Source of the DNA: Polyangium mundeleinium
GTDB taxonomy: Bacteria > Myxococcota_A > Polyangia > Polyangiales > Polyangiaceae
Assembly (NCBI RefSeq): GCF_028369105.1
Contig: NZ_JAQNDO010000001.1
Span: 1,779,711 to 1,843,710, forward strand
Reading direction: 5' to 3'
Length of the DNA stretch: 64,000 bases
Shown: in pieces, positions 18,028-19,317 of the stretch
Numbering within the stretch: position 1 is the first letter of the stretch
Layout: every line of letters begins with the position of its first letter
The notes under the pieces: model-generated
Databases searched by the model: none
What the model saw: the letters and a program-made list of their open reading frames with translations, nothing else
Told to the model about the DNA's origin: nothing
Program-made: the position numbers and the translations under genes

Positions 18028-19317
18028 ATGGAGCGTGCCGTGTCGGGGGTACGGAGCAAAAGGGTGCCGGGCGAGCGAGACAAGGCCACGACCGTTCTGT
18101 CCATGGTCGGCCTCCCTGCGCGGGGAAAAACGTACATCGGGCGCCGCGTGGCGCGTTACCTGAGCTGGCTCGGTCATCCGACCCGCGTGTTCAACGTGGG
18201 GAGCTACCGTCGCCGGCAGATCGGCGCGAGCCAGCCAGCCGACTTCTTCGCGCCGTCGAACAAGGAAGGCCGGCAGGTCCTGCACGATCTCGCCATGACG
18301 GCGCTCGACGACATGCTCGCCTGGCTGCGCGAGGGCGGCGAGGTCGGCATCTTCGACGCGACGAACAGCACGAAGGAGCGCAGGCGCCTCGTCGAGGAGC
18401 GGTGCCGCAAGGAGGGGCTGCCGGTCGTCTTCATCGAGTCGTTCTGCAACGACCCGGGGGTGATCGAGGCGAACGTCCGCGATACGAAGCTCAAGTCGCC
18501 GGACTACGTCGACATGGATCCGGACGCGGCGGCGCACGACTTCCTGCGGCGCATCGCCCACTACGAGAGCATGTACGAGACGCTCGAGGATCCGAACCAG
18601 AGCTACATCAAGATCATCGACGTCGGCCGCCAGGTGATCCTGAACCGGATCCACGGCTACCTGCCCGCGCGCCTCGCGCCCCTGCTCATCGACCTGCACG
18701 TCTCGCCGCGCCCGATCTGGCTGACGCGGCACGGGCAAAGCGACTACAACCGGCACGGCCGCATCGGCGGCGATCCCGAGCTCTCCCCCGCGGGCGAGGA
18801 GTACGCGAAGCACCTGGCGGAGTTCGTTCGGAAGAACGCGCCGCGGGATCAAGAGGTGTCGGTCTGGACGAGCACGCTGCGGCGGACGATCCAGACGGCG
18901 ACGAAGATCACGCGGTCACCGCGGACCTGGCGTGCGCTCGACGAGATCGACGCGGGCGTCTGCGACGGGATGACGTACGACCAGGTGCGGATCGAGATGC
19001 CGGACGTGTGGGCCGCGCGGAGCGCCGACAAGTTCCGGTATCGATATCCGCGCGGAGAGTCGTACGAGGACGTGATCCAGCGGCTCGACCCGGTGATCAT
19101 CCAGCTCGAGCGCCAGCGCTCGCCGACCTTGGTGATCGCGCACCAGGCGGTGCTCCGGGCGATCTACGCGTACCTGATGGACCGGCCGCCGGGCGAGTGC
19201 CCGTCGATCAGCGTGCCGCTGCACACGGTGATCCAGTTGACGCCGACGGCGTACGGCTGCGAGGAGAAACGATTCGCGCTGCCGCCAAACGTGGAGGATC
19301 AGGGGGCGGGGGGATAG
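18028..19317 (+). CDS. Bifunctional 6-phosphofructo-2-kinase/fructose-2,6-bisphosphatase (PFK-2/FBPase-2), eukaryote-type
   Basis: The kinase P-loop and flanks ([37 protein letters not shown]) are near-identical to animal PFKFB N-termini. The C-terminal histidine-phosphatase domain carries WLTRHGQS (RHG) and a second His in [15 protein letters not shown]. The true start may be the internal Met at ~18103. Confidence 0.85.
   Translation: [429 protein letters not shown]

Follow-up and report, generated by a model that had tools for sequence, protein, structure and literature searches.

We analyzed a 64,000-nucleotide stretch of the Polyangium mundeleinium genome (hereafter, the window), in which the plus-strand reading frame at 18028..19317 was called as a complete coding sequence of 429 amino acids ending in a TAG stop codon. 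The ORF listing, GC3, homology and an AF2 model indicated that the gene encodes a compact, core-only 6-phosphofructo-2-kinase/fructose-2,6-bisphosphatase (PFKFB). The GC content of its three codon positions was 0.66/0.46/0.92, and since this was the only frame in the region with a coding-type pattern, ORFs that overlap it in another frame or on the opposite strand were regarded as artefacts of high G+C content. On the same strand, a 609-aa double radical-SAM gene (16152..17981) ends 46 bp upstream of the PFKFB gene, and a 1006-aa radical-SAM/GFO_IDH_MocA gene lies divergently from this double radical-SAM gene on the minus strand (13082..16102).

The predicted polypeptide fuses a kinase and a phosphatase domain. 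The N-terminal 6PF2K domain (residues 18-227; 18079..18708, plus strand, as are all features of the protein) matched Pfam PF01591 (E=1e-74; 251 bits, cutoff 27), its coordinates being confirmed by translation, and the C-terminal fructose-2,6-bisphosphatase domain of histidine phosphatase branch 1 (residues 230-415; 18715..19272) matched PF00300 (His_Phos_1) with E=1.9e-39 and 136 bits against a cutoff of 21.7. Residues 1-17 (18028..18078) form a short, poorly conserved tail. The first 14 residues were disordered in the AF2 model, with pLDDT values below 50. Orthologs differed in sequence in this region, with start positions up to some 25 residues further in. Nothing in the Polyangium protein corresponds to the extended regulatory N-termini that eukaryotic isoforms possess.

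The original prediction, made from the DNA letters alone, was that a eukaryote-type PFK-2/FBPase-2 is encoded in this bacterium, and it was upheld by the results of Pfam, phmmer and Foldseek. In the sequence and structure searches alike, PFKFB enzymes came out on top; neither generic P-loop kinases nor phosphoglycerate mutases did. In phmmer searches against the PDB, rat PFKFB4 (1BIF/3BIF) matched residues 21-415 with E=7e-128, human PFKFB3 (2AXN) matched with E=6.6e-124, and the isolated rat liver FBPase-2 domain (1C7Z/1FBT) matched the phosphatase half with E=6e-61. Generic histidine phosphatases reached only E=1e-8 to 1e-10, and the best non-PFKFB match was a phosphoserine phosphatase with E=4e-10. 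Identity to rat PFKFB4 was 49.7% over 392 aligned columns, and 33 of the 35 functional or motif positions that we checked were the same in both proteins. The likeness of the P-loop region to animal enzymes, which had been noticed in a 37-residue peptide (residues 26-62), was confirmed, with 26 of the 37 residues identical to rat testis PFKFB4; the RHG signature WLTRHGQS was likewise found at residues 231-238. The AF2 model was confident (pLDDT 91.6, pTM 0.88). When it was compared with PFKFB1-4 using Foldseek, TM values of 0.86-0.90 and rmsd values of 1.7-4 Å (about 2 Å) over 400-420 columns were obtained, and 1TIP was matched at a target-normalised TM of 0.97. Both the fold of the two domains and their mutual arrangement in the model match PFKFB1-4. 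Taken together, these data indicate that the protein is a real, probably bifunctional enzyme and an uncharacterised member of the known PFKFB family.

The family assignment itself already exists in a database: the identical protein at NCBI is annotated automatically as 'MAG TPA: 6-phosphofructo-2-kinase/fructose-2,6-bisphosphatase [Polyangium sp.]'. The JGI label is 'broad specificity phosphatase PhoE/predicted kinase', which under-describes the protein because single-domain phosphatases score far lower, have no kinase domain and are devoid of the Fru-2,6-P2 ligands.

Next to the domain matches, we analyzed the catalytic residues of both domains, which were found to be kept. In the kinase domain, the Walker A motif GLPARGKT (residues 28-35; 18109..18132) is identical to that of rat PFKFB4, with Lys34 and Thr35 corresponding to rat K51 and T52. 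The alignment placed Asp110 (18355..18357) at the Walker B position of rat D128, and Lys154 (18487..18489) at the catalytic lysine, rat K172. In the phosphatase domain, the RHG motif (18727..18735) contains His235, the predicted phospho-histidine nucleophile (rat H256), and the proton donor Glu306 (18943..18945) and the second catalytic histidine, His372 (19141..19143), correspond to rat E325 and H390. These three residues, together with R234, N241, R286, Y317, R331, K335, Y346, Q373 and R377, are all the same as in the rat enzyme. We examined these positions in a set of 333 compact bacterial homologs, each representing one cluster at 90% identity. Asp110 and Lys154 were invariant (333/333), Lys34 was present in all 332 homologs aligned there, the remaining one being incomplete at this position, and the catalytic and phosphate-ligand residues of the phosphatase were essentially invariant. 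The Walker A segment G28-T35 was invariant as well, and over the whole set the catalytic and substrate residues of the two domains varied hardly at all.

Conservation with the solved mammalian enzymes suggests how the protein would work. The N-terminal P-loop domain is predicted to transfer the gamma-phosphate of ATP to O2 of fructose-6-phosphate, using Walker A residues 28-35, Asp110 and Lys154, with Fru-6-P held by Arg61, Thr112, Arg118, Arg175 and Tyr179. The C-terminal domain would return fructose-2,6-bisphosphate to Fru-6-P by way of a phospho-His235 intermediate, Glu306 donating the proton and His372 being the second catalytic histidine, and the cellular level of Fru-2,6-P2 would be set by the balance of the two activities.

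One residue of the substrate pocket departs from this conservation. The Fru-6-P pocket of PFKFB3 is formed by R74, R98, T126, R132, R189 and Y193 (PMC3177832). Six of the seven pocket residues that we compared were kept in the Polyangium protein, including R61, T112, R118, R175 and Y179, and the equivalent of PFKFB3 R98 (rat R102) is replaced by L85. A clade-specific basic residue, R82, lies one helical turn upstream of L85, in the segment R82-Q-V-L85 (18271..18282); both residues are in one helix, residues 79-101, in the AF2 model. In crown Polyangiaceae, column 85 was leucine in 117 sequences and arginine in 3, whereas arginine was found in all 213 deeper bacterial sequences and in 90 of the 92 eukaryote-type sequences. 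Column 82 was arginine (98 sequences), lysine (14) or histidine (3) in the crown group and variable elsewhere. Of the 117 sequences with L85, 112 also had R/K82, and an (R82, R85) intermediate was seen in 21 of the deeper bacterial sequences. Among the aligned sequences, the change to Leu85 with Arg/Lys82 is thus specific to crown Polyangiaceae. The covariation and the shared helix suggest that R82 may substitute for the lost pocket arginine, in which case the affinity for Fru-6-P in this clade would probably be retuned and binding not abolished.

In the rat liver enzyme, where Arg104 is the equivalent residue, its mutation by Rider et al. in 1995 reportedly led to a higher Km for Fru-6-P. It was asked whether Leu85 gives the kinase a very low affinity for Fru-6-P or another phospho-sugar as substrate, so that the protein would be effectively monofunctional or retuned, serving chiefly as a phosphatase or as a kinase with changed specificity; such a shift has occurred in several isoforms of unicellular eukaryotes. 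The near-universal conservation of the replaced arginine outside the crown group is in accord with this reading, as is the position of PFKFB3 Arg98, which lines the Fru-6-P pocket (PMC3177832). Loss of function in one domain is also common in eukaryote-type representatives, about one quarter of which lack the kinase lysine (the K154 column). However, all the other kinase catalytic and Fru-6-P residues were invariant in the crown group (120/120; K34 in 119, with one sequence incomplete), which is unexpected for a decaying domain, and dN/dS was 0.02-0.07. The loss of Arg85 was, moreover, tightly tied to a newly gained Arg/Lys82 in the shared helix, with an (R,R) intermediate in deeper lineages, and this pattern as a whole is the signature of a compensated relocation. 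We consider a monofunctional or respecified kinase rather unlikely. A bifunctional enzyme with a relocated arginine would be a natural experiment on rebuilding the Fru-6-P site.

We then asked how the gene resides in its host. The GC content of the PFKFB ORF was 0.679, compared with 0.699 for the window, and its GC3 fell within the range of the other called genes in the window (0.83-0.95). The dN/dS of 0.02-0.07 was obtained from ortholog pairs without synonymous saturation and indicates strong purifying selection; values from distant pairs, in which synonymous sites were saturated or compositionally biased, were discarded. Orthologs were found across Polyangium, Sorangium, Chondromyces, Minicystis, Byssovorax and many Myxococcota MAGs. 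These results agree with the earlier statement that the gene is not a recent import. That bacterial homologues are rare, as had also been stated, was true only at the level of phyla: every named bacterial homolog cluster belonged to Myxococcota, but within this phylum homologs were common (333 clusters at 90% identity). A scan of our genome collection with a single-protein query, which finds close relatives only, gave 18 loci, all from Polyangiaceae; 17 carry PFKFB, and the 18th carries a C-terminal fragment only. Two candidates for homologs in other bacteria, P0124 and P0274, turned out to be from a picoeukaryote.

The only point in favor of eukaryotic contamination or a recent import was the 50-57% identity to eukaryotic enzymes. 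The gene has a GC3 like that of its neighbors and bacterial flanks, and occupies the same position in multiple independent Polyangium assemblies. Its orthologs lie in large bacterial genomes or on long contigs of up to 16 Mb in Sorangium, Chondromyces and Minicystis, and diverge deeply within bacteria. Contamination or recent import is effectively refuted by these observations.

The position of the gene just downstream of the radical-SAM pair, pointed out in the original prediction, was confirmed as adjacency, whereas a functional meaning was not, the linkage being confined to the genus Polyangium. An operon would be one explanation of the arrangement, in which the PFKFB gene is coupled to the radical-SAM pair for making or handling a modified sugar phosphate and not for central-metabolic signaling. 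The PFKFB gene and the double radical-SAM gene are on the same strand with a 46-bp gap, in which no promoter- or terminator-like site was found using E. coli-type consensus sequences, though such a scan has little power in a myxobacterium of 70% GC. The arrangement was also kept in nine Polyangium-type loci (L001-L003, L007-L009, L011 and L016, and also L005, a locus that shows no more than the end of the radical-SAM gene). But the adjacent double radical-SAM gene was missing in L004 and L006, the linkage was absent from L010, L012-L015 and L017, which are more distant Polyangiaceae that have kept PFKFB, and no neighbor family common to the distant PFKFB loci was found. Because the linkage occurs only within the genus Polyangium, the radical-SAM genes do not appear to be functional partners, and we regard the operon as very improbable. 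Annotation of the window found a single carbohydrate-related gene, a GH13 amylase 5 kb downstream of the PFKFB gene.

To consider the origin of the gene, we compared it with its closest non-bacterial relatives, which were eukaryotic and 50-57% identical: Acytostelium (57%), Rhodelphis (55%), Podila (53%) and plant F2KP (53%). Three GVMAG contigs carry homologs of 36-39% identity, more distant from the query than the eukaryotic ones, and giant viruses were rejected as a direct source. Neighbor-joining (NJ) trees were built from Kimura-corrected distances and had no outgroup rooting. The crown Polyangiaceae clade had 100% bootstrap support. Monophyly of all bacteria had 53% with 40 bacterial sequences and 23% with 56, and in the latter case it was absent from the point tree. 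Independently of the trees, one combination of three indel states was found in 314 of 333 bacterial sequences (94%) but in only 12 of 93 eukaryote-type sequences (13%), which modestly supports the view that the bacterial genes have a common origin. Inheritance is vertical in Polyangiaceae and probably so more widely in Myxococcota. Since the fused enzyme is found in many eukaryotic supergroups and, in our searches, in one bacterial phylum only, transfer from a eukaryote to an ancestral myxobacterium would be most parsimonious. Because bacterial monophyly had only 23-53% NJ bootstrap, however, both this direction and a single origin are what we infer from the data rather than what the trees resolve.

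Transfer in the opposite direction was weighed against the same data. PFKFB would then have arisen in Myxococcota and been donated to the eukaryotic stem, and all eukaryotic enzymes would either derive from the bacterial clade or be its sister group. In bacteria the family is large and deep in sequence, its mean tip depth being 0.31 substitutions per site and its stem only 0.03; it attaches near the center of a star-like eukaryotic radiation, and its enzymes are a minimal core without lineage-specific extensions. Yet the named bacteria belong to one phylum, whereas the fused enzyme occurs in Amoebozoa, fungi, animals, plants, Rhodelphis, jakobids and breviates. The NJ trees, lacking an outgroup root, placed the bacteria, with weak support, beside some of the eukaryotes (Acytostelium and others) and not outside all eukaryotes, and few eukaryote-type sequences share the bacterial indel combination. 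We find this direction quite improbable. For other pathways, a myxobacterial share in eukaryogenesis has been put forward, as in the syntrophy hypothesis and for sterol synthesis. If Fru-2,6-P2 signaling had not been invented by eukaryotes but were an ancient regulatory system, vertically inherited throughout Myxococcota/Polyangia, and the compact enzyme were the ancestral form passed to the eukaryotic stem lineage, central-carbon regulation would be added to these proposed inputs. We give this only a slim chance, which it keeps because the radiation is unrooted and poorly resolved and the bacterial sequences reach nearly the same depth as the eukaryotic ones.

Taken together, we think it likely that the gene encodes a functional bifunctional enzyme of the PFKFB core type with a retuned pocket, that it is a stand-alone, housekeeping-type gene inherited vertically after an ancient interdomain transfer, and that it has a role in glycolysis/gluconeogenesis. 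The enzyme would probably act as an arbiter of glycolysis versus gluconeogenesis in sugar-using myxobacteria, and its putative targets are a phosphofructokinase, a class I FBPase or both, with genes at other sites of the genome; none of the genes of the 64-kb window scanned against Pfam was a PFK or FBPase. To our knowledge, ordinary bacterial PFKs lack the eukaryotic allosteric site for Fru-2,6-P2. Complete glycolysis and gluconeogenesis have been reported in the non-Myxococcales orders (PMC10196010).

Textbooks describe fructose-2,6-bisphosphate as a regulator found only in eukaryotes. Reviews and recent papers do the same, with a single bacterial exception (PMC9721465). Our literature search found no paper on a myxobacterial PFKFB, on either activity, or on Fru-2,6-P2 in any myxobacterium. 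The presence of an intact enzyme under purifying selection throughout a large, metabolically versatile lineage suggests that an unstudied bacterial Fru-2,6-P2 switch exists. It raises the questions of whether bacteria make Fru-2,6-P2, which enzymes sense it, and how it is controlled without the phosphorylation tails of the animal enzymes. Sorangium, Chondromyces and Polyangium can be cultured, and some are genetically tractable, so that these questions are directly testable. PFKFB is also a clean and old addition to the eukaryote-like central-metabolism genes of Polyangiaceae, in which a plant/kinetoplastid-like iPGM was already reported from S. cellulosum (PMC2964296).

Finally, we compared the protein with known systems. 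The single-domain bacterial histidine phosphatases PhoE, CobC, PspA and dPGM share the fold and RHG chemistry of the C-terminal domain, but they matched with E=1e-8 to 1e-24, all under the NCBIfam cutoffs, and have neither a kinase domain nor the Fru-2,6-P2 ligands. Desulfovibrio desulfuricans, named in PMC9721465, which quotes Rider et al. 2004, as the sole bacterial exception to the absence of Fru-2,6-P2, was not among the named matches of our homolog searches. To the same family belong the orthologs in Sorangium, Chondromyces crocatus, Minicystis rosea, Byssovorax and many MAGs, which are 59-100% identical within Polyangiaceae and 400-430 aa long, with both active sites intact; deeper-branching Myxococcota homologs differ in keeping Arg at position 85, and genomic context is not conserved.

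Most eukaryote-type representatives have N- and/or C-terminal extensions, the shortest of some tens of residues and the longest of about 600 aa. Among named sequences from outside bacteria, the nearest are those of Acytostelium subglobosum (XP_012754745.1, 57%) and Rhodelphis marinus (55%), which share the bacterial three-indel combination and are NJ neighbors of bacterial PFKFB, with a bootstrap of only about 15%; unlike the Polyangium protein, they are extended at the N-terminus by 114-150 aa and keep the canonical pocket arginine. The F2KP of plants and the green lineage (Stylosanthes, with CBM20, and the picoeukaryote sequences P0124/P0274, with AMPK1_CBM) has a core 53-58% identical to the query or to bacterial sequences, but lies on eukaryotic contigs and is longer at the N-terminus by 330-600 aa, a stretch in which carbohydrate-binding (starch/glycogen) modules are found. 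Mammalian PFKFB1-4 (rat testis PFKFB4, 1BIF/3BIF; human PFKFB3, 2AXN/2DWP; human PFKFB1, 1K6M; PFKFB2, 5HTK) have the same domain order and a core identity of about 45-50%, and share Walker A, the catalytic Lys and Asp, the His-Glu-His residues, the Fru-2,6-P2 ligands and, except at L85, the Fru-6-P ligands. Their tails carry phosphorylation sites for PKA, AMPK and PKB. The 429-aa Polyangium protein, encoded by a bacterial host, is without these regulatory N- and C-terminal tails and has Leu85, with Arg82 upstream, in place of the pocket arginine (R102/R98).

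Because the window is about 70% G+C by composition, more than one frame is open over long distances in every region of it. Among the ORFs at 18028..19317, only the one on the + strand, which encodes a 429-aa protein, had gene-like GC by codon position (0.66/0.46/0.92). Pfam assigned to this protein a 6PF2K domain (residues 18-227, E=1e-74) and a His_Phos_1 domain (residues 230-415, E=1.9e-39), both far above the gathering cutoff. The P-loop peptide and the WLTRHGQS motif quoted in the original prediction were found at residues 26-62, with 26 of 37 residues identical to rat testis PFKFB4, and at residues 231-238, respectively. 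We found no whole-protein model for the query in NCBIfam; the matches there (CobC, PspA and dPGM families) covered the phosphatase half only and were all sub-threshold. Among PDB sequences, the top matches were full-length 6-phosphofructo-2-kinase/fructose-2,6-bisphosphatases (PFKFBs), namely rat PFKFB4 (E=7e-128) and human PFKFB3 (E=6.6e-124), with PFKFB1 and PFKFB2 likewise among the best full-length matches, and generic histidine phosphatases reached merely ~1e-8 to 1e-10. The best matches are thus PFKFBs and not generic kinases or phosphatases, which bears out the predicted eukaryote-type identity. An AlphaFold2 model based on an alignment of 87 bacterial homologs (pLDDT 91.6, pTM 0.88) superposed on PFKFB1-4 with TM values of 0.86-0.90.

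We then transferred functional residues from rat testis PFKFB4 to the query using a HMMER alignment (49.7% identity, 392 columns). By this alignment, the kinase side retains the Walker A sequence GLPARGKT (28-35), Asp110 and Lys154, and the phosphatase side retains Arg234, His235, Asn241, Arg286, Glu306, Tyr317, Arg331, Lys335, Tyr346, His372, Gln373 and Arg377. The bisphosphatase catalytic His and Glu, singled out earlier as residues to check, are therefore kept (His235 and Glu306). The mapped catalytic and ligand positions were essentially invariant in 333 compact bacterial homologs, each representing a cluster at 90% identity; unlike these homologs, about one in four eukaryote-type representatives no longer has the kinase lysine. 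In PFKFB3 the Fru-6-P pocket is lined by Arg74, Arg98, Thr126, Arg132, Arg189 and Tyr193 (PMC3177832), numbering that is offset by 4 from that of the rat enzyme (equivalence from PMC3177832). The expected conservation of Fru-6-P ligands held for Arg61, Thr112, Arg118, Arg175 and Tyr179 of the query but not for the pocket arginine (rat R102, PFKFB3 R98), which is Leu85.

Leu at position 85 recurs among the closest orthologs. In the 120 crown Polyangiaceae orthologs (Polyangium, Sorangium, Chondromyces, Minicystis and Byssovorax) it is Leu in 117 and Arg in 3, and position 82 is Arg in 98, Lys in 14 and His in 3. Position 85 is Arg in 213/213 deeper bacterial homologs and in 90 of 92 eukaryote-type sequences, and position 82 is variable in both groups. 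All but five of the 117 Leu85 sequences (112/117) carry Arg or Lys at 82. Residues 79-101 form a single helix in the AlphaFold2 model, so that positions 82 and 85 would be separated by about one turn and point in much the same direction. Our reading of the Leu85 and Arg/Lys82 combination is that the phosphate-binding arginine was relocated in a compensated manner, which possibly retuned Fru-6-P affinity. The 21 deeper bacterial sequences with Arg at both positions represent a plausible intermediate.

The nearest locus in the genome collection, in Polyangium fumosum DSM 14668, encodes a PFKFB with 99.5% amino-acid identity (dS 0.09), which makes the source of the window closely related to that strain. 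Seventeen Polyangiaceae loci of this collection carry an ortholog (59-100% identity) and an 18th carries a C-terminal fragment only; contigs several megabases long from Sorangium, Chondromyces crocatus and Minicystis rosea also bear orthologs. Two extra searches seeded with divergent members recovered solely compact proteins of 400-430 aa, whose named sources were Polyangiaceae, Sorangiineae, 'Myxococcales', 'Deltaproteobacteria' and Myxococcota MAGs. The contig of the most divergent compact homolog was densely packed and prokaryote-like. The dN/dS ratio was 0.02-0.07 in pairs with unsaturated synonymous sites, and the GC3 of the query (0.92) was similar to that of adjoining genes. The spread of orthologs, the dN/dS values and the GC3 therefore indicate that the gene is old and kept by selection in this lineage, in agreement with the original prediction that host-like GC marks it as no recent import. 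Its product is an intact PFKFB-family enzyme that is under selection and keeps both catalytic centres.

We next examined the relation to non-bacterial homologs by searching 1.84 billion cluster representatives exhaustively with HMMER. The best named non-bacterial matches to the query were eukaryotic: the dictyostelid Acytostelium (57% identity), Rhodelphis (55%), Mortierellaceae fungi (53%), plant CBM20-F2KP (53%) and further protists. In neighbour-joining (NJ) trees the crown Polyangiaceae clade had 100% bootstrap support, and its eukaryotic neighbour, Acytostelium with one metagenomic sequence, had ~15%. Monophyly of all bacterial sequences received 53% support with 40 of them; with 56, support was 23% and the point tree lacked the group. 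One combination of three small-indel states, an independent character, occurred in 314/333 bacterial vs. 12/93 eukaryote-type sequences, Acytostelium and Rhodelphis being among the 12, and lends modest support to a common bacterial origin. It is likely, though unproven, that the bacterial genes share one ancient origin. Because in these searches many eukaryotic supergroups, as against one bacterial phylum, have the gene, parsimony, rather than any rooted tree, points to transfer from a eukaryote to a bacterium.

PFKFB homologs also occurred on Nucleocytoviricota-type MAG contigs from IMG/VR (L020 3178-4359, L021 2652-3833, L022 5001-6161). Giant viruses are not likely to have been the vector, their homologs being more distant (36-39% identity to the query), and they may use them to manipulate host Fru-2,6-P2 levels. 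Separately, an ENA metagenome scaffold (L023, 10001-13045) encodes a PFKFB of ~1014-1024 aa whose N-terminus carries an AMPK1_CBM glycogen-binding module. This intron-poor eukaryotic (picoeukaryote) contig has WASH-complex and Arm-repeat genes alongside; the catalytic core is 58% identical to a bacterial representative (P0115), and no compared eukaryote-type sequence was closer.

PFKFB starts 46 bp downstream of a 609-aa double radical-SAM gene (16152-17981, +), which forms a divergent pair with a 1006-aa fusion of radical-SAM and GFO/IDH/MocA NAD-binding oxidoreductase domains (13082-16102, -; both from Pfam). The best NCBIfam matches of the pair (HxsC4, MoaA, AhbD) were all far under cutoffs, and outside Polyangium the pair was not conserved. 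The adjacency noted originally is real, but the linkage is kept only within Polyangium-type genomes (PFKFB identity at least 82%): the 609-aa gene was missing from two genome-collection loci (L004 and L006), and the linkage was absent in Byssovorax and in five Polyangiaceae loci of greater distance. We found no other conserved neighbour in the genome-collection loci and no phosphofructokinase or FBPase among the window genes scanned against Pfam. Thus, PFKFB behaves as a stand-alone locus, and its context gives no clue to a partner.

Other features of the region were recorded. An imperfect inverted repeat 5' of the PFKFB ATG, CGCCTACG (17982-17989) and CGTAGGGCG (18016-18024), covers nearly the whole 46-bp gap from the radical-SAM stop codon, and could be a stem-loop acting on read-through or translation initiation. 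About 5 kb downstream of PFKFB, a gene at 24586-27144 (+) encodes a GH13 alpha-amylase catalytic domain preceded by a pullulanase-associated domain at the N-terminus. No other gene nearby is carbohydrate-active, and the arrangement is conserved in close Polyangium genomes only. Four ORFs of 408-1139 aa had no Pfam match: 19321-20547 (-), 20634-23822 (-), 32831-34120 (+) and 34117-37536 (+). Three have coding-type GC3; 20634-23822 failed the GC3 filter and its gene status is less certain. The 408-aa gene convergent with PFKFB was found at one other Polyangium locus only (L003). A eukaryote-like Ser/Thr protein kinase (Pkinase, E=3e-40) is encoded at 40213-42336 (+); such kinases are candidate regulators of myxobacterial metabolic enzymes, and we found no link between this one and PFKFB. 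Upstream, a 1288-aa protein (9167-13033, +) has EGF-like domains and a weak Dictyostelium-repeat match. A tandem array (10925-13010; 5.9 copies of a 354-bp, 118-aa unit, 93% identity) fills its C-terminal two-thirds. This eukaryote-flavoured, rapidly evolving repeat protein is 79-87% identical in close Polyangium genomes.

By its conserved residues, the kinase domain would convert ATP and Fru-6-P to Fru-2,6-P2 and the phosphatase domain would hydrolyze Fru-2,6-P2 through phospho-His235, the two opposed activities setting the level of this effector. Fru-2,6-P2 might in turn act on PFK, PPi-PFK and/or class I FBPase and so arbitrate between glycolysis and gluconeogenesis, both of which are reported to be complete in non-Myxococcales myxobacterial orders (PMC10196010). 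Eukaryotic PFKFB isoforms have long regulatory termini, whereas the Polyangium enzyme does not; because these are missing, its control is probably by substrate and product levels or by partner molecules.

A literature search found no experimental work on PFKFB or Fru-2,6-P2 in any myxobacterium. A passage in PMC9721465, citing Rider 2004, states that Fru-2,6-P2 is absent from bacteria except Desulfovibrio desulfuricans. Sorangium cellulosum reportedly has a second cofactor-independent phosphoglycerate mutase closest to kinetoplastid and plant enzymes (PMC2964296), and therefore PFKFB is not the sole eukaryote-like glycolysis gene in Polyangiaceae. What has been under-appreciated is how large and how old the myxobacterial clade is, its apparently uniform 'core-only' and fully bifunctional character, and the putative arginine relocation in the crown group. 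For specialists in glycolytic regulation or myxobacterial evolution, this PFKFB is worth an experiment rather than startling. The family is well known, an identical protein is already correctly auto-annotated in NCBI ('MAG TPA: 6-phosphofructo-2-kinase/fructose-2,6-bisphosphatase [Polyangium sp.]'), and the enzyme is one more member of that family, not a novel type of system.
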